DNA of 64,000 nt from Balanoglossus misakiensis (GCA_040954595.2 CM082576.2:9675129-9739128); one strand, 5' to 3'; positions 6,567 through 51,300 are shown, counted from the stretch's first letter. The notes: generated by a model not told the origin, from the sequence alone. Program-made: numbers and translations.

Positions 6567-8605
6567 GTAGCATACGCAGACATGCCGAATTGTGTGGTAA
6601 AAGTATGTGCAAAAATATCTTTAAAAACACACACACACAAACCATAATGCTTCACAGTTTTCTGTTACAGAAACATGTTAAACTATCATTTTGCTGTGGC
6701 TCTGTTTTCCAGTCAAGTCACAGTTTTAACCACGGGCCATGTTTAACAAAACTGTGAGGGCGCTGTGTACAGAAAATGGTCGCATTTCCCCATTTCTGTA
6801 CATGTGGGTAGGAAATGTGTACTGCCTTTACACATCTAGCTAAATTAGTTTATCTAACATGCTAGCTAAGAGGACACGTTTTACAGTAGAGTGCAGCACA
6901 GACGAAAGAAATGATTCAATAAAACAAAATTGAACTGAGCAGTAGAAGACAAAAACTAAGAATATATAAAATGAGAGTAGAATAAATGTAGTAAAAAAGT
7001 GGGACAAATATGACATGATCTGGTGAATAATGACCACTGGATTAAAAGTGTAACCTGTCAAAGCCGATAAGACTTGTGTCTCTATGACGCAAATTGAAAG
7101 GAAGATTGAATACAGCTGGTACAATGAACCGTGAGATCCGGCTTTATTGGCAGAAATTCCCTCTTCCTCATTCTGCGGGTCCACTATATTCTAGTTTTGA
7201 TTTCTTATTATTTCTGTATTATTGGTGCAAGTTTTACACTTGGTATGTCGACGGATATTGTCTTTAATTGAATCTAATGCACAGTAACCGAATAGAAGGG
7301 TGTATTCTATTCTGTAGTATTACATGTTATCTTAATTCTTCATCATCTCATAATATGACGTCGACCGCCACTGTAAAGTTTCGCACACAAATTAGGCCGT
7401 CCATTCTTCATTCTTAAATTAGGCCATTCATTCTCCGTGAAATGAATACGCAATTGATATTATACGCAGAAAATGTTAGTATACCGCCCTGATTCCATCA
7501 AAGTTTATTGTCCAGCAGGAAGCTACGTAAATTATAGCCGCGTTCAGTTCTGGCATGAAGTGACGGATGAGGGCGCGATAAAACTGGTGGTCATCACGTA
7601 GCAGTGCGAGTAAAATTGAATGATACGCCGCAGTAGACAGTCCGAAGACATGTAGACAGACTGTTAACGGTTATCTTCCTACGAGTTATTTCTGAACTTG
7701 GTTAATATTACCCAAATCAGAGAACACTGCGAGTAATAACGCTTTCTGTTATCATAGATACAGCCTCGACACTTCAGGAAGTGTGCGGCCGTCCCGCTGG
7801 CCATTGAATTGGCAATTAGTGACTTTTCACAGAGTGGTAGCGTAGCGTAAAGACACTCCATTTTGTCCACAACAGACACGATTAGCTCTGTATTTCCGGT
7901 AATGAGGTGGATTGTCAGATGGTTGCGTGATCAACAGGCGGTTTTCTCCATCGGAAAAGCGACCACGAAGATCTAGGTATCTCGGAGCAGTAGAACCACT
8001 TGGGCGACTGCTTGAAGCTGCCGTTTTACTCAAGACACGTATCGGTATCTTTAGGAGCACCAGTCAGCCGACCGCAAGAAAATCATTTTGGCGTCGAGAA
8101 AAATGAAGAAGACGGCCATTCACCGGTCATAAATGCAAATTACCATGGAAAGTGGAGATCGAGCCAGTCATAATTAAGTTTTCGCTTTTGCGGCCACACG
8201 AAAAAAAGTTGCGCCCGCCACATCCAGTGGTCATTAAAAGAGTTGGACACACCATTTAAACCATATATGGGCATTTGTCAATTAGAGGGGGTTGTAATCC
8301 TTTAAGGCCGGGTGCGGCAAGGTCAAGGACCAAGATTAGTTCAAGTTAACATGGGTATAAATCATGTCTTGTCTGTATTAAGGGATAAACGGTGATGGAT
8401 ATTCTCTTCAACGAATAAGCTCCCTGTTCATCAAAAAAGACGTCATTATTTCCTATTTATCATTTTAACATAACTATATATCAGACGACAAGGAAAGGTC
8501 ACAGCAAATCGTGCGAGGGCAGTTGAGTTTTCTATGGTTTCTTCCGACTGTGTTTCACGCCAATGTGACCATATCACACCTTGCTTCTTGTACAAGCTCA
8601 TCGCT

Positions 8606-8617
8606 CATCATCATCAT

Positions 8618-8667
<50 letters not shown>

Positions 8668-8683
8668 AGCTCATCATCATCAT
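8606..8683. repeat. (CAT)n/(CAC)n trinucleotide microsatellite
   Basis: Directly visible. It generates the spurious poly-His, poly-Ile, poly-Ser and poly-Asp ORFs. Confidence 0.97.
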
Positions 8684-11600
8684 CCACACTCTCCACAGCT
8701 GTCAATATCCAAAGCATTGCGTACGAAAGAAATATCGACGGGCACATACCGTCAGTCGATATCGGTGATCGGAAACATGTAAACAGAATTTCCAACAGAA
8801 ACTTCGGGTTAAGTAGAGTGCAGAGTCTTTTGAGTTTGGCCAGAGAGTCGTTACCGAATAACAAGCCTCGTCGACACACGTTTCAAGGAGAGACTCAAGA
8901 CAGCTGGCGTTGATGCATACCGCATGTGTGGGCGGTAAATGCAAATATCTCTTGGTTTTAAAATCGCTAAATGATCCGTGAATAACGTCACATTTGAAAA
9001 CATCAAAAGAGCAAAAACCATATTCACATCGGCCTGCTGCATGTGTGTAGCAGGACTCCACCAAAACTAAGAATTCTCCATTTGTTTTGTATTACCAGTG
9101 ATAGCAATGCATAACGAGAAGAAAACAACCGTGCCATCCTTCATAGGCAGGAACTCTTCTTGGTTACCAGTGCAAGAGAGAGGGGGGAGAGACAACTAAT
9201 TATGGGATGTGTTGTTCCGATGCTTTTCCAATTAGTCCTTCTATTTTATCCCATCTCATGGTGACGTAAGACTTGTTTGGAATACTAAAGTGATCAGAGC
9301 GAATATGTGTTGGGAAAGGATGTCTTGTCATTTTGTGATCGAACGACTCTTGTATAGACTGCAAGGTAAAGATTGAGATAATCATATCGGTGTGTACTTA
9401 TACGCCTGTAGTCAAAATTCAAGTCGGTATTCAAGCATGATTAGAAATTATCAATTGAAAAAAGACTTGTAGCTTCCAACGAATCGAGAGTTTCATCATG
9501 TCCTACAAGATTACTGCCGCCGACAAAAGCTGCATTTTAAAAAGAAAATAATATGATAAGACCGAGAAAAAAAATATTTACTCGCGAAATTGCGCCTGTG
9601 GTAACTAGATTGGAGATATAGTTCCGCGGTCTGTCATTCACTAAGTAACGCTTTTATTCGATTTGGAAGCAAGCGTGACTTCGTTATCACCGCAAAGCGG
9701 CCCCGCTCGTTCCCTTTCCACGCGAGCCATCTCGTATTGCACGTCAAATAATTTGTCCGAAATGTTGTAATGTGTCATCAGAGGATAATTTTCACAGAGA
9801 ATATCGGCGGTTTAACGACACAGCGCATAAATTTGAAGTTTAATCACGAGGAATGTTTTGTTCAAACAGTCGTCACTGTGACAGTAAAAGTCCTTTTCAT
9901 TTCATTTCTTTTTATCGTGAGACGATTAATTCGCGTTGTTTATGTTGGTATGACTCTCAAATATGTCACTATTCATATCAGGATGACGCAATAGTTACGT
10001 CGGCGAATGAAATGAAAGTTTTCCGGGTCTTGGACGAAAGCTATCGTCGTGCGTCACAAATGATAGCAGAATGGAACAAATGTCCATGAAATTCCGTCGA
10101 TGCGTAAATGTTTCCGTCATCCCGCCTCTAAAAAACAAAAACAAAGGAACGGTAATAAAATTCTCCCTCGCTTCCGCGGAAAGACCCATTTTGCATATTG
10201 ATGATTTCTCCGCAAACTTTCGACTGCGTGTGTTTGAGTCGTGTAAACCCACTGGTTGCAGGCGTTCTGTACTTTCTGGGTGCTGTGACTGTAAACCCCT
10301 GATCTTCTGTGTGAAAACATGAACACGTAATTTTTACAGGGAATTAAACCGCAATTTCCACAAGCGAACACAGATTACCTCACGCGAGCACTGATAAACA
10401 GTCGCGCTATTTGTGTAACAATCGCAAAAGCGAATGTGAGAACATTTTTTTATCGGTAGTGTTGCCGCATTCAACGTTGTCTTTTACATTTTCAGAGTTT
10501 TAATCAGACGCCACATTCATCGCTTTCGTAGACGGCGACGCTGGATTCAGTCCCGCCATTCCACATTTTTTTTTCATGATTTAATTTCTAACGAAGATAA
10601 TGCCATGTTGTTGTACTCAGATCACCGACTGCCTGTGTCTGTTTGCTGCTGCATTTGGACAAGTATCGTTAATAAATGGTCAAATAATATTTTGTGGACA
10701 CTCCCGAAATATGGCCGCCGGAGAGCAGCTCGATAGAAAATTCTGAACATTTTGCGTCACTGTGTCGCGCATGATGGGTGCCCGCTGAAAATAAAGCAGA
10801 CGAACAAGATGCATGTAAAACTACACGGCTTGGATCGCTCAGCAGTGTAGTCTATACGAACCACCAGAAAAAAAGGAATAAATGGTCGATATATCTTGAG
10901 GGGGTGGTAAAAAGGCAACGGGGCTTGAAAAACATGGCGATAGAGCGTGATGCATTGATCTCTACATCGTCCAGAAATTCCGTCGTGCGTGTTCGTTTAT
11001 TTTGGTTGAAACACGGATCAAATATGACGCCAACAGCGACGGGAGAAAGCCAAATGACGTTTGACGTCTGCGAAGCGTATTCTCCAGCTGACATTCCTGT
11101 CAGCAGTCATCATAACTGATATGAGACCTGCCCCACTACAGGTGTTGATTTTCCCGACGACAGTGCTGCGAGGAAACTGAGCAGGCGCAGTGCGGTCGGT
11201 CAAGTGGGCTGTACATATACAGTTGCCGGAGTTTAGTAGTTCTCATTCTCACACCTGAGCGCGATAGTGTGTGTAACAGCCGAAATTCAGACACCGGCGA
11301 ATTTCAGAGGGTAGGTGTCGTTTTATTTATACCATGTATCGCAAAATCGATGCTTTTTGGAAGCCATCAATACGGATTTCTTTGGCTGAATCCCTTAATC
11401 TGACACACAAGTACAAGCTTGTGAACGACAGCGCCTGCCGCACAATTTACAAGTAAGCAATTACGCTGCTGAGCGCTTTATTGATTGAGGGAAATGTGGG
11501 AAGCATCGACTTACAGAGAGATTTGTACGCAGGCGTTAGTCAAGTTCTCCATCAATTAACAAGATTCGGCTGTGCATCAGCTGGAATTACCCGACTTTTG

Positions 11601-15885: not shown

Positions 15886-16040
15886 TGTATGTATGTATGT
15901 ATGTATGTATGTATGTATGTATGTATGTATGTATGTATGTATGTATGTATGTATGTATGTATGTATGTATGTATGTATGTATGTATGTAGGTATGTAGGT
16001 ATGTAGGTATGTATGTAGGTATGTATGTAGGTATGTATGT
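15886..16040. repeat. (TGTA)n tetranucleotide microsatellite with degenerate GTAG units at the 3' end
   Basis: Directly visible. Confidence 0.97.
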
Positions 16041-28836: not shown

Positions 28837-28905
<69 letters not shown>

Positions 28906-30840: not shown

Positions 30841-30995
30841 ACCTGTCTGTCTTTGTATGTTTCTGTATCTCTCATCCTGTCTCTCTGCCTCTCCGTCTCT
30901 GTCCCCTCTCCCTGTCTCTCTGTGTCTGACTCTGTTTGTCTGTCTCTGTCTCTCTGTATCTGTCTGTATGTCTGTCTGTCTGTCTCTCTCTCTCT

Positions 30996-31026
<31 letters not shown>
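30841..31026. repeat. Compound (CT)n/(TGTC)n low-complexity tract
   Basis: Directly visible; same repeat type as 28837-29070 in the opposite orientation. Confidence 0.9.
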
Positions 31027-34000: not shown

Positions 34001-35290
34001 GTTTAAGTATCATTGTCATTATTCCCGGGTCGTACATTGGAACAAATGTAACAGTGTCCGTATGTCTGTCTGTGATGCCTGAATGTACTGGACAAGGATA
34101 CAGTTTTTTTAAAAGTTTGCAATCATCGACACTCGATGCACGACAAATGGAATTGCCTCACGCGCTCAGAAATTATAAATCGCCAGTATAGCAGACAGCA
34201 CTCCCAATGGAAAGACAGGCCGTCGGTTTCTGGTGGCATTCGTTATCCCCTGTTATTCCCATTCCTAAGTGACGGGGATCTAGGTCGTCGTGATGAAAAG
34301 TTGTCAACAGATTACGACCTAAATAAATATAAAAAACGATGCTTCATATTATGCGAAATGCCCCAAATGAGCCCCAAAAGACTCATTCGTAGTTTTCAGT
34401 TGATAAAAATGATACAAACGCGTGTCTGGCCCAAGAGAGGGAGAGAGAAGCACCGCACGTCTCTTTGCTTAAATGCTATAGCTAATGGCTGGCCGCTCCA
34501 TATAGATGGTTTTGATGATAATTTTACGCGCTTCCGCGACTTCCCGCTAAGACGCGCCTGATTCGAGCAGAGCACTACGCAATAATAGAAACTAGCGACT
34601 GGGAGCTTCTATAGCGTGCAGGGTGGAAAGACTATTGTTACACAGAGTCTCGGCGGAGAGGAAAACTTCGACGAATCCTCGGGTTTTCCTCCCTGAAGTA
34701 CCGTTTCTGATAATCGAGACATCCCTTCGAAGGAAAGGGGATAGGAAGCGCGCGCGAGGAATGTTGAAATTCGAACAGTGGTATACCGTCTGGAATAAAT
34801 GAGCCGTGTGATTTAATTCTCCCTGCCAAATCAATTTGCACCATTTACGAAACCACCTCTAGGGTACCACTCCACGACTGAAGATGTCTTCACGACTTGG
34901 CCCTGTGCCATGATGCTGTAAAGCCAGAACAATGGCTACTGTTTTCCCCATGAAGACGGTAAAGTAGGAGCCAGGCAGTAAGAACTGAATGATTCGAATG
35001 ATCAAAACAGAACTTACACCGAAATAAAATTACATGTACATATATGTTATTCACGCGTGATTAGGGTTTTAAAAGTCTCCTGAAAACAGATATGTTTAAT
35101 GTGGTTTCCCAGCGATAGAGTAACAACATGTAGCACATCAAAATTCATAATGTTGATTGTATTAGTTCCTTGACGCACCTAGCCGGGGGCGGTGGAAGGG
35201 GGGGGGGGGGGGAGATCGTCACGGCATAAATTGTCGCCGCCCACTTGTAGTCCCGCGAGTTAATCTGGGCCTTTTACGTTACGGTTGCGT

Positions 35291-35494
35291 TATAAAAGCG
35301 GGCAAAGAGGTGACCACTGGTTATGCCGTTTGTAGCAACAGTGGAGCGAACAAGTTGAAAATATTCTGTAGGTGAGTGGGTTTGGGATCAATGAGTGGCA
35401 CGCCCGAGCGTTCTGTGCTTGACTGAGCAAGTGCTTTTAAATTTGTATCTTGTAAGGGACCAGGGTATTTAATTATATTTCCTTGTCATTTCAG
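35291..35494 (+). promoter_or_regulatory. TATA box, short non-coding first exon and 5'-UTR intron of peptide precursor gene A
   Basis: TATAAAAG at 35291-35298. Donor TAG|GTGAGT at 35372 and acceptor TTTCCTTGTCATTTCAG ending at 35494, 44 nt before the ATG. A G-rich tract at 35185-35212 and a half-CRE TGACG at ~35171 lie upstream. Confidence 0.6.
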
Positions 35495-35538
35495 ACTCGT
35501 CATTTCTGAGCGCTAGAAGTTGTTGTGTGAGACACAGA

Positions 35539-36192
35539 ATGATGTCCATAGGCCAGAAGATGGGCGTCTGGTTCGTAGCGCTGTGTTTGATAGTTTTATG
35601 CGATGGACCTGTAGGTGGCGTCAGGCCGATCACGGCGTTTCCACCGGGCCGCTGTCTGCCCAACCAGCCGTACAACCCGTTCTGCAGACTCCTCGACCTG
35701 GAAACCCAGGAGGAAGCGGCGTCGAATGTGGCCAAACGGACTAGGTGCATGCCGGGGATGGAGTTCAGTTTCTACTGCAAGATAGGCAAACGGGCATCCG
35801 GTGTGACGGGCGGGGAAGGCGAGGAGGCGGCGGCGGCCGGGAGGAACCCGCAGCCCAAGAGGGTGTCCCTCGACATCGCCGACTGTTCGATCGGACCCGA
35901 CGGCGAGGTCGACCCCGTCTGCGAGAAGCGGCGAAAGCGGATGCTTCAGCGGAGAGGTGTCGGCAGCCACTGCATCCCCGGCAGCGAATTCAGTTTCTAC
36001 TGCCGCTTCAGAAAAGCAGACGATTATTTTTCCCAGTTGGCAGAGGCGAATCTTGTCGAGGCGAACGACGGCGTTGAAGACGACACGGCGGCGACAGGTG
36101 AGAACACTGGCAGAGATGACCGATTACTGAGGAACGAAATAAGAAGTAAGCCTTTAATAGAACAAGTTGCAGTAGTTCATAGGAATAGATAG
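35539..36192 (+). CDS. Secreted prepropeptide A: multi-peptide precursor with four two-cysteine rings, neuropeptide/hormone-like, family not recognised
   Basis: 217-aa ORF from the first ATG, GC-rich relative to its flanks. Hydrophobic N-terminus (KMGVWFVALCLIVLCDG), KR/RR/KRRKR/RK sites and acidic spacers. Rings: CLPNQPYNPFC, CMPGMEFSFYC (followed by KI-G-KR, an amidation signal), CSIGPDGEVDPVC, CIPGSEFSFYC. The C-terminus may differ if the donor at 36098 is used. Confidence 0.85.
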   Translation: MMSIGQKMGVWFVALCLIVLCDGPVGGVRPITAFPPGRCLPNQPYNPFCRLLDLETQEEAASNVAKRTRCMPGMEFSFYCKIGKRASGVTGGEGEEAAAAGRNPQPKRVSLDIADCSIGPDGEVDPVCEKRRKRMLQRRGVGSHCIPGSEFSFYCRFRKADDYFSQLAEANLVEANDGVEDDTAATGENTGRDDRLLRNEIRSKPLIEQVAVVHRNR

Positions 36193-37484
36193 ACTAGATC
36201 TAGAATTATTTTGTGCTTTCAAAGAGGTTTCCAATTTAGATAGACACAGTTGAGCGGGGTATCGTGTTGAAGAGATGAAAACCCGGGTGTTTTTTGTAAG
36301 ATCAATTCGTAGCATATGTCAAAAATCTATTTTGAGTGAAATCAACTTGAGTCAAACAGGTATTCGTATGTAGGCCTACAAGTCATGTCTCTGCCCGTGA
36401 CGCACCAACAAGGGGTCAACGACTTTTGGAAGACACAGTCGTGACGGAGTGAAAAAAAGAGACGTAAAACGCAGGCATATGTCCGACAAATATGCTTGCT
36501 TGGGGCAACATACACGGTAATTTGTTGCTGCATGGGATGTAAACTCCGATGATGTACAACCCATTTCTTCCCGACGCTCCATTACACGAACGACGGATCG
36601 ATGGCAACGCGGCGTAGAGTCATTGTGAGGCAGCGCTCATACCCGGCAAGCATGACCTCGACCGGTATCGTTACAAAGCACACCCACCGCCGAGATTCTC
36701 ACTTCCTTCGTCATGGATTCTGAAGTGAGAACGGTAAACTATGGCTTAGGTTCAGTAGCGATGGCGATATTTTGTAGCGTCCGTGGCAAAGTGAAAGGAT
36801 CGGTCCGCAACACTTTAGACGTACAACCAATTTCATATTGTGCTTTCATGTTTATCGACGCAATCGGTGCAACTGGCAACTGATAAGGTGTGTTCTACTC
36901 GCTCAAGCGTATTAATGGCACGGTGTTTAAAGTTGTCGTGTCGATAGTAATTGTACGTTTGCGGCTGCAAATACCTTTTAAAGTGCTACCCCATATTGAC
37001 GCCGATTTGCCAATTATAGGCGCGGCTCAAAAACTCAGCTGTCACAAGAAATGATGCATTTTGGGGGCGTTTACAGCTAGTTCGACAGAATTCATGATGC
37101 TATTATACACCAGTCCTCCTAGACTTGTTACATAATTCGAGACTGTTATACAGTAGACAGAATTTATTTTTAAAATATCTGAGAAAATTGGAACGTATTT
37201 TGACAGAAATAAATTTCAGAGAGTTACGCGCACCCCGTGAAACTTAAAGCAACGCCAATCCATTTGGTTTATCAATATTATACATGTATATGGTTATTGT
37301 TCAGTTCTGAAAAAAAAAAACGATTAGATTCCAGCAAGATTAAAATAAGCTCTCCGGTTATGCAGGAAGTGCTCTGGTTATCGGCGAAGTTTTCATGGTC
37401 TCATAAATTCGTGACTAGACGTGTACATAAATTTATTTATATTTTTGCGTTCATCATCTAATCGTGATGTCTCATTCTTTGCAG

Positions 37485-37543
37485 GGATTATGCTTAATCA
37501 GTTGAATCAAGAGTAAATGGCCAGTTTATATCTTTGTAGAAAG
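37485..37543 (+). other. Candidate 59-nt internal exon (alternative 3' end of precursor A, or UTR exon of precursor B)
   Basis: Branch-like CTAAT (~37458), acceptor TCTCATTCTTTGCAG|G and a consensus donor AAG|GTAAGT at 37544. Confidence 0.4.
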
Positions 37544-38689
37544 GTAAGTAGTTTACTGAATAGGCAAAAACTTTGAAAACATGATGTTCACTGAAGCGTG
37601 AATCTGTATTCCAATATTTCATGCCGCTGCGAGTACAAGGACACCGATTTTGAATTAGAAAAGGACACCGTTATGCGCATCGGTCGCTGCGCAGAAGATG
37701 GCCGCCTGCCAACCAACCAATTGAAGTTATCTTCCGTTTAGTTTGGAGACGACTGAGTCCTTCAACACTTAGATGCACACTTTTCTGGTACAGCGTGTTA
37801 AAAATGTTGACATTATTGTTGCAGTGGTGGTAGAAGCTGTACAGATCCACTGGTGGCCCCGCATTGGGGGGGGGGGTGCGCCCTTAGATTTCTCCGCCCA
37901 TACTTACCCAGATCGTGTCTTGTGAGTGTAGCACTAGCAGCAAGCAGACACACACCTCTTGGTGATGAGTACAAGAACGTGACACAGCCGTCGCTCGAGT
38001 GTGAAATCGTGGCAGACATAGAGAAAACGCGGCCACTGAGACTTTCCAATCGTCCGTCTTTGGAGTCTCAACCACAGTAAATGAAAACAAGTAGACGGCG
38101 AAATTTGTGATACACTAGAAATCTGTCATGGAAGAATTCGAACGCTGCGCCCAGTACACAGTTTGTCACGTCTGAACACTAACTATATACGCGACGGGCT
38201 CCACTCAGATGGAGTTGCCCATTGAAATTTTCAGGCGCTGAGCGAAAATAAAATGAGTTATAACAATATGGCATCATGGTTTCAAATATAAGAAGCCGGG
38301 AATATACTGTGTAAAGACGGCACTGCTACTCAGGCCTTAAATTCTATACTTTAGTTTTCTCGCGGTATTTGAAAGAAAATGGGCAAAACTGTAAGCGAGA
38401 AACACTGCGCTCTACCAGACCGGCAGGGGAGAAACAAAAAACAAATCCACGCGGCACTGACACCGTGCTTTCACGCTTCCCGAGGTTTCTCACCCTTCAA
38501 ACGCGAAGAAAAAACAACGCTTCTTGTCAGCTTCCATCCAGAATAGTGTGATTGGAATTCTCGACAACTACTGGTTGACGCGACGTGGCTAAGGCTGAAT
38601 TTAAGGGGATTAGCTAGAAGATTCCGCTCGTCTTTATGTTTTTTTAATATTGTCCATTGGATCATTTAGGGGCGTGGGTCTGTCTGTCA

Positions 38690-38813
38690 CATTCTCCGTA
38701 CAGAGATTGTAACTAAACCCTAGCTAGGAGGACTGACCGCACCAATAGCAGCCAGTCAGAGCCCCTAGCTAGATTAGAATTATCCACGCGCTACAATCTC
38801 TGTACGGAGAATG
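38690..38813. mobile_element. MITE-like 124-bp element with perfect 22-bp terminal inverted repeats
   Basis: CATTCTCCGTACAGAGATTGTA (38690-38711) is the exact reverse complement of TACAATCTCTGTACGGAGAATG (38792-38813). There are also inner inverted CTAGCTAG..CTGAC / GTCAG..CTAGCTAG arms. Confidence 0.7.
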
Positions 38814-41800
38814 GGTGTGTCACTTACGTCTCCCGATACTAGAACGAGATTCAGACAGTTGGGCACGTCGCCATATCAAACCAATCCCCAACACCAAATC
38901 TTCATGCGATTTAACTCACTCTCGGTGCAATAACGCACACGCGACCCCAAAACAGAAGATATGCGACAACGAGGACGGCGGAATCAAAATCTCTGCACAA
39001 GCTTCTCTCTGCCATGCGTTGCCATGACTACAAACTCCAGAACACGAAGAAGACGGTAATCAATAAATGTTGATGCTATCGTCCTCGCATCGGTGACTTT
39101 ATTCTTTATTTCTCTCTCTCTAAATATTTAACTTTGTTGCCTTTATACGATACCATCACTTTTTTTCTAGTCTGCCATGCAAAGAACGCGCATGTTATCG
39201 TCAGAGCCATCTTCTATGTACATGTACATATATCATGGCCATTTTTCAAAAGCGGTGTCTCGCGAAAAGAATAAAAGAAATCGCTTCCTCGTGACTGTAT
39301 TTCAGTACATCACGCACGCCATGTTGGAATGCTCTCAAGTCGCAAACTTATCGTGTTACGGCTTTCAAAGAAGGCATCAAGATTGGCTGTCACTGCGCTA
39401 ATAGAGCAGATTGAGTCATTGGTGTTGGCGGAAGACGTGCCTACCATTGGAGTAATTCGATTCCGGGGCTTCGTTACGCACTCACCGCGTTCGGTCCTTT
39501 CATTGCGGCACACGTGTGTCAAAGTGTCAAATATGATATTTTAACTTCGTGGGATGCAGCGTTTTCTACCTCTTATTCGCCAAAATTAGATTAAGTTTGC
39601 TTAGACAGGATGTTTAATAAAAATCAAATAACCACGGCATATTTATGTAACTGCATGATCTTTTTTGTGGTCCACATGCCACGTAAGGTCGGTGACTGCT
39701 AAAAACGCCTTCATGTATTTTGGTCCATTGTGGACCATTCAGCCGGTTACGTGTTTTCGGCAACGCTCCCCGATGCGGTGTTCTCAACCACGTTTTAAAA
39801 ACCTTATTTTTTCCGGTTTGACCTAAGCACAGTCGAAATTGGTTCCAATAGTAATGCGTTTCTGATATCTGAGTATAGAAGCCAGGAATATGTTAGCTAG
39901 AACTCGCACAACTTTTCTTGATTCCCGGCCCTCAAGGCAGAGGGTCTGTCGCTAACCGGTGCTAACTGATGGGGAAATTATTTATTTTCGGGGAAACACT
40001 GCCCATGCAGTGTCGACCGTTGAAACCCGGACGAGGTCTAAGAGAAACCTGCCATCGGATTTTATGGCGCGTGCGACGGTACCGCCGGCAGTCCTCAGGG
40101 ATCTGCCTGTTTATATCGCGTGTGATATTGTGCTGTGAAGTGAATGAGACGGAACACGTCAGATTCAGATTTATAATTATTGCCTGAGATCAGTCTTCTT
40201 TCAAATGTCAACGCGTTTTTATCCGATAGATGATTCCGGTCGGAACCCGCTGAGCGCCAATTAAAAAGCGTTACTTACGATCATACTAAATTGGACATTT
40301 ACAACCGATTAATTTTTTTAACGCGCTATACGAGGCCCTAGGAGATATCCGGAGTACCTCCTGCAGTGCACTGGGCATTGAAAACTAGTGTGTAGTATAG
40401 AACAGACTGCGAGAAGAATAAGTGTGGTTGTTTCTCGGGTAAACACATTTACTTAGAATTTATTTGGCAGACAACCCCCCCCCCCCAAAAAAGGACTCTA
40501 CTCCGACAAATTTGAACATTTCAACCTCTTCAGTATCATTTACGCCTTGGTCCCCCTGAAAATACAGTCGCTAAAATGTTCCCCCAAAACGGAGAAAGTA
40601 GGCGGATATCTTTCACTCGAAAGATTGTAGATTATTGATCAAGAGCGCTCATTGCATACAATAATGTTTTCCTTACATTTTTTGTCTTTCAATTCCTTTC
40701 AGACTTTTCAATATGCCAACCTGGACTATTTTCTCAGTGCACCTATATACTTGCCCGGTCCAACCAATTCCGCTTGCAACTCTCATGGTGTCTAGTGACC
40801 TATGTGTTTCACACGGCGAAGTTTCTTCGACTTTTAAACACTTTTGTGACACGATTCCCAATAAAACAAAATGTCTACACGTATATATTACCATATATTT
40901 TAGCCTCAAACGGTATTAATATCGTCTCGTTCGTGCGTATCCCGGACGGTAGCTGCACAAAACTTCACCCGTGGTGATATGATATATATTTCATTCAGAG
41001 TGACAAACATTTATTTTGAAACATCTTTGTTTGACCTATAACAATAAACGTATGAATTTATAAGTTGAATTGCACGCATGTCATCTTAGTCTATATTTGT
41101 TCGCTCAATAAAGTATTTTTTCGGAAGAGTATCTTCTTTCTCGGATCCGTGACAGGCTGGGCACCTGAACTCTGGCCTGCTTGAATTGGCTTTGGTTTGT
41201 CCGACCATGTCACTCGCCAGAGAGAGGGAGGGGCAGAGAGAAAGAGAGAGAGATGAGAACATTTTCTTTTGGGTCAAAGTTGTCGACGGGATTCCGTGCC
41301 ACCTAAAGTGTTGGCTGCTGGTGCATGTAGGCCTTAAACTTTACAGCGAGCATTCCTTTCGGTCATATTCTCTACCTGAATCAAATCATAATTTCCAAAG
41401 AATAACAAAGACACACAAAGCTTGAATAAACACGCATGGGCGCTAATTGCTGCGGCTTATAGCCGTCAACATAAAGGATTCATTACTGGAAGCTGCGGGA
41501 AGTGTGTCTCTCTATACGCACACAATCAGCCACAGGTTAACAAAACGTAAACAGCCCTATACATCATAAAATAAAATCCATTCTCCTATTATCGCATTCA
41601 GAACGATAGCCAAACCACACCGCGTGTGCTAACAGCGTAAACTATACGAAGATGGGTAATGAACGGACTGAACTGATAACCGCCCGTGAGGACCTTGACC
41701 GTGGGCACACACTGCCGAGTGCCGGGTGACATTTTGGGGAAGCTACTGCAGACTATTGGGTTAATTGGCCGAGTTTCTTTGCCTTGTGTAAAAACGCAAG

Positions 41801-44219
41801 GAGAGACACGCAAAGACTGGATGTCATGGTTGTATATAGACGTACTTAGCAAAACGGCACCCTAAATCTTCTTCGGGAATTTTGGTGCACCTATACATGT
41901 ATATGCGAAGTGCAACAGTTACACGTGCCACCTTGGATGTGTCGTCAACACCCATTTCACGAAAGACGACCAAAATATCACCGCTTTGTACGACGGCAAT
42001 TAATTTTTCTTACATACCATATATTACACGAATTACTATTATTGCGTTACACTGGTACATTAAATTCCCGCGCAAGACAAATTTAACATCGTTAATTTAT
42101 AGCAGTGGATTTACATAATCGAGTTCTAACGGTCAACAAGTCCCGGGCTCTCGCGTAACAAATACAATATTATTCGATCATCATTTCTGACATCAGTGTA
42201 CACTCCACTTAAGTCGACATGTTCTGAAATTGGTGACAGAAATATGCAGCGATGATGGATGGTTGGATTGGAGGCACATCAGAAGGGAACCTTGGGAGGC
42301 TTGTCGGAAGGAAATTCCGCCTCGGTGTTCGTTGTGTCACTTTATTTTATAAAAACATTCGTGCAAGAATTTGATATAAGCACAAGGGCGCCGTGGCGGT
42401 GAATTAATAGGGTATTTTGCGCTCACAGCGAGATCTCGCGAGACTTGGGTGATTACCAAAGCAACGTGAACGGGATCCTAGCCAAGTCAAATGGTCTATA
42501 ACTAGTACCTCACGTGTCACAAGATGGAAAGTAATCTGCCTGCCAAGGGGGAGTTCGGGAACCAGATTACAAATTATGCAGGAAAGAATCCACTCACACA
42601 CAAACAATTACAGTTAGACTGGTCAGTGACCTGTGATGTACATTCTGTAACGTTTCGGGAGACGACAAGTTAAACTGGTTTGTTCTATTGACGTGCAGAA
42701 CAAGAGAAAGCGATGAATGGCGTTTGCGTCATTCAACGCAGTGAGATTATTAATTTTTGGTAATAATATATATACTTTCAGAGGCAAATCGGCTGTTAAA
42801 TTCTCAAGGAACGCCGTGACGCTGAATTTGTCGCCACCGGGGAAAAACGTGACAAAACTTCAATAAAACGCTGGCGTACTTTTCAACATGCACGCGTAGA
42901 GATAGGCCTACTGAGCAATTTCTAAAAAAAAAAATCTGAATTTTCCATCGCGTTTCATTCAAAGGAAAAGTTGCTCTGTTACAGTTGTAGTGACGTGCTA
43001 AGTGACGTGTTACTAGTAGTCTGAATGTAAACCAAATACACAATGGAGAAAGTGACGTCTCTCCTGTCATCTCCGTAGTTCTTAAGGCAGTCTTAGCGAT
43101 TTGTATTGTACAGTCTGTATATCCCTTCTCCACGACGACGCCATCCATATTGCCCAAAATGGATCACGTATTGTTCAGTTGGTCGGTTAATGAGCATGTT
43201 TCGAATCAGGTGTCTCCTGCAAATAGGCCTCCCTAACCTGTGTTTGGCGCGCAAATTCACGATAGAAATACGGTACTTTGGGGAAATTCTGATAAACACG
43301 CGTTCTAAAAATCCTTCCATCCGGGCGTTGCATCGGTTTGTAACCAATACTGCATTGAAACGAGGGACCCCCCGGAACAGTTTTGCTACCTGTTTCGCGC
43401 GTGTCTTTTCTCAATAAAACAATAAAAACATCGACCCTAAAGTCTAAACGCCAACCCAGTTAGATCTCCAGCATCTGTGGGCAGATCGTGATTTTCGCCT
43501 CAAAAAGACGAGGATTAACTTTTTCTCCCCGCCCCCTGATAAATGGTGTTTGCTATTCAGGAAATTGCTGACAGTTTACTGGGACGATGAATATCGCTCA
43601 CGTCGCTTCTTCTCTCAACAAAAGATTGACATCAAGGAGAGACATCACGAGCGAGCTATCTTTTGTTCCACGCAGATGTAAATCTGCAGGTAGATTGTTT
43701 TACCGTTCATAAATCATGTACGGAATTCCGCTCGGTGATGCAGTGCAGTGGGGGCACTGGTGTAATTATCATCCGTTACTCGCGCCTGCCCACTCTCTAC
43801 ACCCTGAGCGAGTTGAACCGTAATCCGGTCCTCGTAAAAAAACGGTAATCTCTTAATTTGACTGCCGGTAATACTATCTGAACACGTCACCCTTCATAGG
43901 AGACGACACGGCTGTCGTTGGCCGAATTCGCTATAAAGCTTACACGTTACGCATGTCTTTAAAAGCGCGTACTCCCACACTTGAGTTCGCGTTTGATTGA
44001 CTAATACAGGTACATAAATCACTATCATCCTATTAAGTAAAAAGAAAAGATCCACCGTGCACATGGGAGGAGTCACGCATCCTTTTCTGACGAGGTACAC
44101 TTCTACAAATAGAAGTGCAGCAACGGAGCCCATCGCCGGAAGACTGTGTCCTTGTTTTGGGAACTGACTGAGAAGACTAATATTGGCTGTTTTTTATTCG
44201 GGCCTGTGGTGTCGAAAGT

Positions 44220-44648
44220 ATGTCGGCGAGACAGGCTTATTTCTGCGCTTTCGGGGTTCTCGTCTTTTGCCAAATTTTGGGAATGGGCTACACGTATGAA
44301 CTTAGAGACGTCATTCTCGGCTCGCCCTGTCGACGCGGGCGCGAGACGAGCGAATATTGCCGGCGACTGCTAACGCCGCAGTCGTATGTCACGACGACGG
44401 GGACCGAGGATTCTAGTTGGCGGGAGTTGGCGACAGCGTTAGCTGATGTACTGCTCGGGTCCTTCTGTACTCCGGGGCACGGTGATATGAACCGATACTG
44501 CAGAGAGCGGCTGATTCGGGGCGCAGAGTCGCCCGCATCAATCGAGAAACGTCGGTGTATACCCGGTATGGAATTTAGCCACTTCTGCAAAGGAAGTTCG
44601 TGGTTACAACGCAGCGGTCATTCATATTTTCCAAGTCCTGCACGGTAA
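44220..44648 (+). CDS. Secreted prepropeptide B, paralog of A, with three two-cysteine rings
   Basis: 142-aa ORF with a signal-peptide-like N-terminus (MSARQAYFCAFGVLVFCQILGMGYT). Rings: CRRGRETSEYC, CTPGHGDMNRYC and KRR-CIPGMEFSHFC-K. The last ring matches RCMPGMEFSFYCK of precursor A at 10 of 13 residues. The stop codon lies inside a donor-like CG|GTAAGA. Confidence 0.8.
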   Translation: MSARQAYFCAFGVLVFCQILGMGYTYELRDVILGSPCRRGRETSEYCRRLLTPQSYVTTTGTEDSSWRELATALADVLLGSFCTPGHGDMNRYCRERLIRGAESPASIEKRRCIPGMEFSHFCKGSSWLQRSGHSYFPSPAR

Positions 44649-48141: not shown

Positions 48142-48313
48142 TGTTCTGAGATTTACATGGTTTCTAACTCGGATTCCGGCGACAAGAAATCAACAAAACT
48201 GGGGATAAATCACCTATAATGTGATCCAAATGATTGATCAATTATCAGGAGTCACGTAGATATACCGACTGCCGTAACCGTTCGCGCCTTTGGCGAAGTA
48301 AGAACCAACTTGG

Positions 48314-51300
48314 ATGGCGAGTACGGTTGCCAAGTTTGCGGTATACAACATCAATAATGAAGATTTCTTGAGCACAAGAAACATTTCAAAAAGTATGGAA
48401 GAAGATGTTGTGCTGGAGCAGCTTTCTGATGACAGATTTCAACAGAGATCGGAAATCCTCGATTACCTTAGGACGGAAGTTCGCAAACATGGCGGTAGGA
48501 TACAATTTCAAAACATGTCGGCGTTGTTCAGGGGTCTGTCAAGAGCCCTGGCAGACTCGAACTGGACTGTCAGACACCACTGCGTCCAGCTTATATCAGA
48601 GATGATAGCGGGTCTCGATGATGATCTCGACACGTACATGTCGACAGTCCTCCCCAAATTGGTAGCTAATATTGGAGACAACAAAGTAGCTCTTCGCAAA
48701 GCTGTCATCCAAACATTACACCTGTACATGAAGCATTCCAGTGACGTCCAGAATGTTTTCCACGCCATCGTAGAACACGGTTTGGAGAGTCCGGATCCCA
48801 AAGTTAGAGCCGAAACCACCATCAATTTCCCTCTGTTGCTGACCGCAGAATTCGCGAAACAAGACTTATTTACAATAACGCAGGCCTTGGCCAAAAGACT
48901 GAACGGCAGCGCGGAAAATGAAGAAAACAAGATAGCAATCATATCGCTGGAGAGGATCCGGGGGCTGGTAGGAAACGAGGTATTTGTCGGCTATGTGCAG
49001 AGATTGTCCAAACCCGTCAAACAGGTGTACCTACAGCTGACCGACAGGGATGAAAACGGCTACGACGGACCGGTCGATGTGAACTTAAACAGCAGCAAAG
49101 GTGTCCTGGGAAGTGGCACGTGGAAACGTAGCCACAGCCGCGACAGCGACACTGTTGGAAGGGGTCTTGAGTTCGGTATCATACCCAAACACATTATGGA
49201 TCAGTTATTGGATCAACATGATTTACGAGTCAGGGCCCAAGGCATCGAAGGTCTGCGTGAAATTATGAACGACATGGCAGACCTGGCACCACTCCTGCCT
49301 CATATATTGGCATTCATCAGTTTCCTCTGTAATTTACTGGATGATGTGAACTTCAAAGTTACCACTGTAACATTAGATATATTCGATAAACTGGTCAATA
49401 AATTAGGACAAGGAGTTAAACCATACCTCAAGTCGCTGATGAGCGCCCTGACGAAACGACTCGGTGACAACCAAATAGTTATCCGTCAAGCCAACATGAA
49501 AGTTCTCATGCACTTGATGCAGATTCTCACACCCAAACCAATCTTGAACCAACTAACTGATAGTTTGCAGCATCGGAACTCGCGAGTTCGAGAGGAGGCC
49601 CTGAACATGGTCATAGCGTCGCTGCTCACGTTCCCCAGCTACGACTTTGATCTCGGACAGTTGTGTCAAACGATCGCACACACGCTGGTGGACCCCAAGA
49701 GGAAGGTGCGACAGGCCTCCCTGGAAGCGTTCGCTGTCCTGGCCCAAGCGATGGGCCCCGGCAGGCTCCAGCCGCTGGTGTCGGCGGTGGACAGCGTGGA
49801 ACTCAGCATGGAAGGCGACGGCGTCATGGCAGCGGTGCAGGCACGGCTGGCCAGGCGACAACTCCCGAGACTGAATAAAGACGGTCTCGTCGAATACTCA
49901 ATCCCCCTACCGGCTTCGGCCACCACGAGAGGATCTCCCCCGAGCGCCGACATCGAGTGGATCATGGCGGCTGCAGGCGGCGGAACGAGCAGTGCCCGGG
50001 AGAGGAATCACAGCGAGCCGCAGCGCGAACTCTCTCAGCCCATGTCGGCCAGGTCTGCGTCGGGACAACACGAGAACGCCGGGCCCACTCCGGCTCCCAG
50101 GCGATACCATAGTGCCGGAAAGAACAGGAAGAAATTGCCTTGGGAAGAGCTGCCGAATGAAGATGATGGTGTAGAATTGGAGAAATTGGAGAACTCAAAT
50201 CAAAGAAACCACCCCAATAGTGCACCGTCACACGTAAGTACAAAAATAGAAATAAACATACATGTACATGTATATGTACATGTACATGTATGAACACCAC
50301 AACATTTATATTTTAGATTTTAATTTTTCTACCCTCTTTGCCTAATAAACCCTTTTAAGTCAAATAATAGTAAAAAATGTTGAATAACAATAGAACTCAT
50401 TGTTTTAGTTATAAATAATAATCTTGATCTGAATTTTGATAACAAAAAGGTGAAATTAAACTAAAATGTCAGAAAAAATTCATTCTTTAGAAGGGAACTA
50501 CATGTATAATCTTCTTAAAATGAAATTGCAAAATTAAATAAAAACAAACAGTGACTGAAAAGACACAGCAGTGGAAATTGTTTCCGTTGTTCTGCAATGG
50601 ATCATTTTACAACTGCAAAAAGTAATTCCTGTGGCCAGAAATTTATAAGTGTCACCCCAAAGAAAAAGTTGTAAGAAAAAAAAGGTCTCTGGAATTAAGA
50701 AATCATGCCGTTGTCATCAGTAGATTTTTATACAATGTCCATGTACATGTAGGTCACTTGCACCCAACAAGTGTCATTTTGTATGCCTCTGGAATGGAGG
50801 ACAGGTTGAATGACCATTGATCGTTACGTCACAGAGAATAATGCATTACTCTAATGGAACCTAGATGAATTGCTGAATAGAAGTACCGGCGATCAATTTT
50901 TTTCCCTCTGCGTACATGTCTAATGCCCGCAGCCGTGTATGGCTGAGGCAGGCAGCCTGCGTCATCACCAATCAATGAGGCCTTGACTGCGCCCCGCAAA
51001 GAGTTGAATGCCGGTCAGTTTAAAAAGTTGAAAATATGATGGTGGCGCGGAAAATTTGGTGCGGGGAGAGCGATTTGCGGGTTCTCTTCACTGTTGACAC
51101 TGGTTTGAATTATTGATGAGATTTTGGCAAGTTGATGCCCAGCTCAGTCATGCAGATCAATAAGTTGGGAGTGAGCGTCCGCCAACAGTTGGCTATAGAT
51201 AGGTAACCCCATTAATATTTGATGTTGACCGATCGGATGTCGGGGCCACCTTTTGAGTCTTTGACACTACGACATGTAGAGGCCCTTCCTGTCCGCACAT

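Follow-up and report, generated by a model that had tools for sequence, protein, structure and literature searches.

Two neighbouring genes in a 64,000-nucleotide stretch of the acorn worm Balanoglossus misakiensis (GCA_040954595.2 CM082576.2:9675129-9739128; this whole stretch is called the window below) are real, conserved and paralogous, and their orthologues span three enteropneust families. As judged from sequence, these genes, known so far only from acorn worms, probably encode prohormone-type precursors, whose disulfide ring peptides would serve as receptor-mediated signals of a neuropeptide- or hormone-like kind. The layout is most likely that of a prohormone: a signal-like N-terminus, conserved rings lying between basic sites, unconserved spacers of variable length, and glycine-basic processing signals.

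Gene A (open reading frame ORF1, protein P0001) and gene B (ORF2, protein P0002) were delimited from a stop-to-stop ORF list and its translations. Both lie on the + strand, and 8,027 bp separate the stop of ORF1 from the ATG of ORF2. Their coding features are as follows, with the spacing of each two-cysteine ring written as C-x(n)-C and cysteines numbered from the first ATG.

35539..36192, + strand: main coding exon of gene A, 217 amino acids from the first ATG if read through to the TAG at 36190-36192; the ATG has A at -3
35539..35604, + strand: predicted signal peptide of gene A, about amino acids 1-22, MMSIGQKMGVWFVALCLIVLCD (hydropathy; AlphaFold2 helix)
35653..35685, + strand: gene A ring 1, C39-C49, CLPNQPYNPFC, C-x9-C, a degenerate version of the motif
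35746..35778, + strand: gene A ring 2, C70-C80, CMPGMEFSFYC, C-x9-C, with KRTR before it and KIG-KR after it (Gly-dibasic amidation-type signal)
35884..35922, + strand: gene A ring 3, C116-C128, acidic loop D-CSIGPDGEVDPVC, C-x11-C, followed by EKRRKR
35971..36003, + strand: gene A ring 4, C145-C155, CIPGSEFSFYC, C-x9-C, followed by RF-RK; the most conserved block of the family
44220..44648, + strand: coding exon of gene B, a type B precursor of 142 amino acids, stop TAA at 44646-44648
44220..44282, + strand: predicted signal peptide of gene B, MSARQAYFCAFGVLVFCQILG (hydropathy; the Ptychodera flava orthologue keeps this N-terminus, MLTRQVYLCAFGVLVCPQIYG)
44328..44360, + strand: gene B ring 1, C37-C47, CRRGRETSEYC, C-x9-C, diverged (P. 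flava: CSPGFEMSGLC)
44466..44501, + strand: gene B ring 2, C83-C94, CTPGHGDMNRYC, C-x10-C, followed by RER
44556..44588, + strand: gene B ring 3, C113-C123, CIPGMEFSHFC, C-x9-C, with EKRR before it and KG after it

An earlier, sequence-only reading of the window had described two same-strand ORFs 8 kb apart with hydrophobic N-termini, basic sites and seven two-cysteine rings, five of them C-x9-C, one C-x10-C and one C-x11-C, and the translations and ring table agree with that description exactly. The same table confirms its claim that three of the seven rings share the sequence C-[MI]-P-G-[MS]-E-F-S-[FH]-[YF]-C-[KR], and its proposal of a tandem paralogous pair is borne out by a BLASTP match between the two proteins (1e-6). 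The rings are surrounded by the basic sites KRTR, GKR, RRKR, RR and RK in ORF1 and KRR in ORF2, and the hydrophobic N-terminus of each ORF holds two further cysteines. A six-frame scan of the entire 64 kb found C.PG.EF at 35746, 35971 and 44556 only, and by tblastn the two loci were the only matches to the proteins within the window at an expect value (E) < 0.01; together with the orthologues in other species, these results exclude a chance origin of the motif rings. Synonymous codons differ at six of the seven ring positions that carry an identical amino acid in all three CxPGxEFSxxC copies, so the peptide rather than the DNA sequence appears to have been kept, the pattern expected under selection on the peptide.

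Both proteins start with a basic n-region followed by a hydrophobic core of 12-15 residues, an arrangement kept in the orthologues; ORF1 reaches a Kyte-Doolittle maximum (11-residue mean) of 3.15 and ORF2 one of 2.41. AlphaFold2, run on the gene A protein with a six-sequence alignment, returned a mean predicted local distance difference test (pLDDT) score of 51 and a predicted template modelling (pTM) score of 0.19, and the sole confident block was an N-terminal helix at residues 4-22 (pLDDT ~82). This low-confidence model fits a disordered prohormone that carries a signal peptide. No Pfam family scored above its cut-off for any of the six family members compared in this study (search at E <= 10). 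Feature searches of the ESM Atlas, which give one row per family set out of 30 hits, placed neuropeptide precursor clusters in all ten rows among the matches listed for P0001 and in nine of the ten among those listed for the P. flava type B protein; the rows span many neuropeptide families and suggest, as a lead only, the class and no specific family.

The conservation of the two genes was established from protein searches and orthologous gene models. P0001 matched P. flava XP_070578404 at E 7.2e-47, the sole protein at E <= 1 among 720 candidates, and the gene A orthologue in this species is XP_070578400 (52% identity, E 7e-47), with type A isoforms of 195 and 211 amino acids; further gene A orthologues are Glandiceps talaboti XP_078001256 and Saccoglossus kowalevskii XP_006819290 (LOC100379065). 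P0002 alone had no homologue at E <= 10 in a word-indexed search (26 candidates), and its P. flava orthologue emerged only through a profile built from P0001, the P. flava type A protein and P0002. Searched against 1.84 billion cluster representatives, a collection from which the window's own two proteins are absent, this profile matched five proteins at E <= 1e-3; the four among them that come from hemichordates are RefSeq entries bearing only the name 'uncharacterized protein':

P. flava type A, E 8.7e-96
G. talaboti XP_078001258, E 2e-22
S. kowalevskii XP_006819290 (LOC100379065), E 2.5e-19
P. flava XP_070578407 (type B), E 3.3e-8
P0008, a protein from a metagenome or run assembly, E 6.6e-4

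Nothing convincing was found outside hemichordates in this search, and the taxonomic restriction applies to the annotated and predicted proteins that these libraries contain; unannotated genomic copies would escape it. P0008 lacks a signal-like N-terminus, its Pfam matches all stay below threshold, and it is regarded as a chance match; it carries a duplicated unit of ~85 residues with ISCFPTVESHYCRHE (C-x8-C) and is probably unrelated.

The orthologue of gene B, P. flava XP_070578407, aligns by tblastn from 44220, the start Met, to 44645, the end of the last codon (E 8.5e-25, 41.7% identity). Type A proteins, with four rings, occur in all four species, and type B proteins, with three rings, were seen in B. 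misakiensis and P. flava only; the profile search gave no type B match from Glandiceps or Saccoglossus. Because type B is common to B. misakiensis and P. flava, the A/B duplication is older than their split, and since the P. flava type A and type B genes lie on the same 41.86 Mb contig under consecutive accession numbers, the tandem arrangement is probably conserved. The family has thus expanded in two ways, by multiplication of rings inside a gene (three to four) and by duplication of the gene itself (types A and B), and with hemichordate proteins as its only matches this upholds the view of the sequence-only reading that it is lineage specific. That reading had also raised the concern that the ORFs might be internal exons of a larger protein, which is ruled out because the orthologous RefSeq models are 180-217 amino acids long and begin at the homologous Met.

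In the RefSeq acorn-worm orthologues (P. flava XP_070578400-406 and XP_070578407, G. talaboti XP_078001256-258 and S. kowalevskii XP_006819290), length, start Met, hydrophobic N-terminus, ring order and basic flanks are as in the B. misakiensis genes, whereas spacers and tails are almost unrelated to them and ring 1 has x6 spacing in P. flava. All four type A proteins share one ring order and one layout: signal-like N-terminus, CDGP.GGV, ring 1, spacer, ring 2, spacer, ring 3, ring 4 and tail, with the CDGP.GGV stretch more diverged in G. talaboti (CDVPVHGI). Ring 1 is a degenerate copy of the motif (CIPGSLFNKYC in S. kowalevskii, CGPGKSNGAFC in G. talaboti). Ring 2 follows the consensus C-[IM]-P-G-x-E-[FLM]-S-[FW]-[YW]-C-[KR], with Arg directly before the first Cys in all four proteins, and ring 4 the consensus C-[IM]-P-G-x-E-F-[SN]-[FY]-[FY]-C-R. 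Ring 3 is acidic in all four, of the form D-C...P-x-C with x10-11 spacing, and a basic run begins no more than four residues past it in every case (KRRKR, RRRKR, KRRR and RERQRR). Twelve columns are invariant in all six proteins (C70, G73, E75, S77, C80, C128, R139, C145, P147, G148, E150 and C155).

This conservation is concentrated in the rings and their borders. Mean pairwise identity among the four type A proteins is 0.55 for ring 2 with its flanks, 0.43 for ring 3 with RRKR and 0.68 for ring 4 with its flanks, compared with 0.16 and 0.11 for the spacers and 0.21 for the tail, and the contrast between conserved rings with basic flanks (0.43-0.68) and unconserved spacers (0.11-0.16) sustains the claim of a neuropeptide- or hormone-precursor-like layout. 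The adjacent, conserved TOGARAM1-like gene shares 92% identity with the P. flava counterpart, as against 52% for gene A and 42% for gene B, which shows how rapidly the precursors evolve outside the rings. Glycine before a basic site is the usual amidation signal in peptide processing; such a Gly-basic signal follows ring 2 in three of the four type A proteins, and past ring 4 a dibasic pair stands at +3/+4 in all four (RK, KK, KK and RK), preceded by Gly in three. In type B, KRR precedes ring 3 in both proteins, and B. misakiensis and P. flava have IEKRR-CIPGME[FL]S.FCKGS in common.

If the genes encode prohormones, the signal peptide would be cleaved as the precursor enters secretion, and convertases would then cut at sites such as KRTR/C, G-KR, RRKR and the RK after ring 4. 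Disulfides would form within the rings, giving small closed rings with the core C-x-P-G-x-E-F-S-x-x-C; given cleavage sites between the rings, each Cys pair would have to close within its own ring. Amidation is predicted where Gly precedes a basic site, so that ring 2 of the window would yield CMPGMEFSFYCKI-amide and ring 4 in the other three species a peptide ending ...C-R-amide; a further predicted ring peptide is GVGSHCIPGSEFSFYCRF. The products would be released by secretory cells and act on a receptor.

Several observations weigh against this prohormone interpretation. The amidation signal is not universal, as ring 4 in the window is followed by RF-RK (RG-KK or RG-RK in its relatives) and ring 2 of G. 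talaboti has no Gly, and in type B, KG without a basic site comes after ring 3, which leaves the mature end of that ring ambiguous. Rings 1 and 3, being poorly conserved or acidic, may be spacers instead of products. The ESM Atlas scores of 0.81-0.87 stay below the 0.9 bar, the AlphaFold2 alignment is shallow (six rows), so that the low pLDDT says little against a fold, and both gene models are incomplete at the 3' end.

An alternative interpretation is that the rings are secreted peptides without a neuroendocrine role, released to the exterior as epidermal or mucus defence peptides, as toxins, or as pheromones or gamete signals carried by the water. A signal peptide, basic sites and disulfide loops suit any convertase-processed secreted peptide, and defence and reproductive peptides are commonly lineage-restricted and fast-evolving, as these are (52% and 42% identity where the neighbouring gene keeps 92%). 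We consider this unlikely because the rings are near-neutral or acidic (a conserved Glu and one Lys/Arg after the ring), unlike cationic antimicrobial hairpins, because an 11-residue core that is nearly constant over three enteropneust families better fits a fixed receptor interface than an arms race, and because amidation-type signals of the Gly-dibasic kind typify neuroendocrine processing. It is very unlikely that the products are unprocessed small secreted proteins in which three or four disulfide-stapled loops serve a matrix, adhesive or binding function: no confident fold was predicted (pLDDT 51, pTM 0.19), the spacers share 0.11-0.16 identity and vary in length among species, and furin-type RRKR/RRRKR and K/R-R sites stand exactly at ring borders in all species, even though cleavage is itself a prediction, some species have no clean sites bordering rings 1 and 3, and the conserved C-terminal segment D-x-x-[LVI]-[LWFI]-x-x-x-I-R and CDGP.GGV are not obvious peptide products.

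A third possibility, whose mechanism overlaps that of the prohormone interpretation, is a strongly diverged branch of a known cyclic neuropeptide family of the melanin-concentrating hormone (MCH) or elevenin type, which we regard as improbable. The sequence-only reading had found no known cyclic-peptide family that the rings fit, and this holds for the families tested here, since there is no Pfam match and the MCH and elevenin features are not reproduced. Somatostatin/allatostatin-C/urotensin II-type peptides resemble the present ones as disulfide-closed rings from a prohormone; they come as one C-terminal peptide per precursor, with ring cores such as F-W-K, and none of the six members matched Pfam somatostatin or urotensin II at E <= 10. 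Elevenin and MCH were compared by eye with the sequences printed in papers. Against membership in either, x9 spacing occurs in five of the seven window rings and x8 in none, and, in the accessible parts of the sources, both MCH (C-terminal) and elevenin (N-terminal) are one peptide per precursor.

The likeness to MCH-type precursors is that the precursor is secreted, that a disulfide ring comes after a dibasic site, and that the ring opens with Arg-Cys-[Met/Ile] and has Gly two residues on, and it makes a cyclic-neuropeptide role plausible; ambulacrarian MCH-type peptides also carry Met/Ile after the first Cys, followed by D-[WV] and with a basic residue penultimate to the second Cys, according to the part of Semmens et al. 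2016 (PMC4772807) that was available. By the same partial account their ring is two residues longer than that of vertebrates (x10 versus x8), each precursor holds one C-terminal peptide, and a separate S. kowalevskii MCH-type precursor has already been reported (PMC4772807). The present precursors differ from what that account describes: three or four rings are internal, with 62 residues past the last ring of gene A, rather than one at the extreme C-terminus, and the rings are x9 with P-G after Met/Ile and [FH]-[YF] before the second Cys, rather than x8, or x10 with D-[WV] and Lys/Arg penultimate to the second Cys. Pfam Pro-MCH (PF05824) had no match at E <= 10 in any of the six members. MCH-type membership was rejected: the single C-terminal peptide, the ring pattern and the Pfam profile are all absent, and only Met/Ile after the first Cys agrees, as far as the accessible part of the source describes these peptides.

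For elevenin, the L11 peptide of protostomes, the similarities are a single disulfide ring that is comparable in size and likewise contains an aromatic residue, C-[RK]-G after 6 of the 22 family rings (C-R-G in several members), and D-C...P-x-C in ring 3 of all four type A proteins. Elevenins, as described in the accessible portion of PMC10175484, have eight residues between the Cys and conserved D5, C6, F11, P13, C15, R16 and G17, with one peptide per precursor; that portion also reports elevenin-like receptors predicted in S. kowalevskii and amphioxus with no elevenin precursor predicted there, which would leave room for a diverged ligand. The differences are that elevenins, so described, are always C-x8-C and single-copy and unite D before the first Cys with P-x before the second in one ring, whereas the present peptides are x9 and multi-copy, their elevenin-like features being spread over different rings and never united in one. 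No mature-region ring of the six proteins is x8; the only x8 Cys pair is C12-C21 of G. talaboti, in the signal region. Elevenin membership was likewise rejected, as x8 spacing is absent and no ring joins D-C...P-x-C with C-[RK]-G, the elevenin pattern being taken from the accessible portion of its source. The clade of elevenin receptors extends across Bilateria, and its ligands typically carry one or two disulfide bridges, according to the accessible part of PMC5818035. It is a long shot that the CxPGxEFSxxC peptides are the missing ligands of an orphan deuterostome receptor, for which a Saccoglossus elevenin-like G-protein-coupled receptor (GPCR) would be the best candidate; if so, elevenin-type signalling would reach deuterostomes in a multi-copy, ring-enlarged form.

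With respect to novelty, the family is probably an undescribed, enteropneust-restricted family of multi-ring peptide precursors, with a signalling role suggested by sequence. Searches with the ring strings, LOC100379065 and XP_006819290 returned no relevant paper among 8.1 million PubMed Central (PMC) papers and 0.36 million preprints, a text search that figure-only sequences escape. In searches of the hemichordate and enteropneust neuropeptide literature, which did not extend to two key 2013 catalogues of bilaterian neuropeptides (Jekely; Mirabeau & Joly), no paper describing a family of this kind came up. The S. kowalevskii neuropeptide list of PMC10508912 does not include the family in its accessible part, the supplements of PMC6188537 and PMC4772807 contain none of the ring strings, and a preprint on cone-snail toxins is without hemichordate content. 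The earlier claim that the family is undescribed therefore stands as far as the absence of a relevant literature match goes and is probable, not proven, because the 2013 catalogues lay outside the search and figure-only sequences are unsearchable.

Hemichordates, placed between echinoderms and chordates, are used to reconstruct the evolution of deuterostome nervous and endocrine signalling. To our knowledge, almost all catalogued hemichordate neuropeptides belong to families common to other phyla. A peptide family present in all three major enteropneust families and with no detectable relative elsewhere in the searched libraries would be a lineage-specific addition to the signalling toolkit; it would yield marker genes for cell types and synthetic-peptide candidates to deorphanise hemichordate GPCRs, including the elevenin-like receptors that are still ligandless in deuterostomes. 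Since a prohormone that yields disulfide-cyclised peptides is of a well-known kind, the interest lies in a new family and a possible receptor, not in a new principle.

Candidate promoter and splicing elements accompany both genes:

35291..35298, + strand: TATA-like element TATAAAAG of gene A, read from the sequence, the only TATAAA in 34900-35540; putative promoter role
35372..35494, + strand: putative intron in the 5' untranslated region of gene A, donor TGTAG/GTGAGT, acceptor TTGTCATTTCAG/A (GTGAGT ... TTTCAG)
36098..36099, + strand: putative proximal phase-1 donor ACAG/GTGAGA in the gene A tail, where P. flava isoform X2 leaves X1 (...ATG/)
36146..36147, + strand: distal phase-1 donor AGAA/GTAAGC in the gene A tail; the alignment of the P. 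flava X1 protein ends at 36144
43944..43967, + strand: putative TATA-like stretch TTTAAAAGCG of gene B, with a second TATAAA at 43932

What distinguishes the two P. flava isoforms is precisely the stretch bounded by the positions of the two donors (16 residues; the donors are 48 nt apart), and their junction residues, Gly in X2 and Arg in X1, fit one common acceptor exon starting with G-purine. The two phase-1 donors and these isoform junctions suggest that gene A probably ends in a small downstream exon that is alternatively spliced as in P. flava; downstream motif scans for this terminal exon found no counterpart of the P. flava C-terminal tail. The agreement of the donor spacing with the isoform difference suggests conserved alternative splicing of this segment, whose consensus D-x-x-[LVI]-[LWFI]-x-x-x-I-R is also kept in P. 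flava type B. The stop of gene B, TAA at 44646-44648, overlaps a donor-like CG/GTAAGA, and the P. flava type B protein is 36 amino acids longer at its C-terminus than that of gene B; downstream motif scans for a continuation exon found no match to the P. flava tail. Gene B may therefore be spliced onward or may be truncated in B. misakiensis.

A similar stretch, ACGTTACG...T(A)TAAAAGCG, lies ~265-275 nt upstream of both ATGs. It may be a core promoter shared by genes A and B; a blastn comparison of 35276-35300 with 43944-43967 gave 80% identity over 25 nt, a match short of significance (E 2.4). Some 80 nt before the gene A TATA-like element, 15 consecutive G occupy 35198-35212 (+ strand).

The TOGARAM1-like neighbour is an intron-free ORF of 663 codons at 48302-50290 (+ strand) that encodes a HEAT/TOG-repeat protein (Pfam CEP104-like_TOG, CLASP_N and others). 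Its product is 92% identical to the P. flava 'TOG array regulator of axonemal microtubules protein 1-like', and its other matches reach at most 54%, which marks B. misakiensis as a close relative of P. flava. In P. flava the gene for this protein is recorded on a contig of 41.0 Mb, and those for the peptide precursors on the one of 41.86 Mb, so the linkage may differ between species, or the gene may be a retrocopy. Elsewhere in the window, microsatellites occur at 8605-8684 ((TCA)27, in a poly-Ser ORF), 15886-16040 ((TGTA)39), 28837-28902 ((GA)33) and 30868-31026 (imperfect (TC)80).

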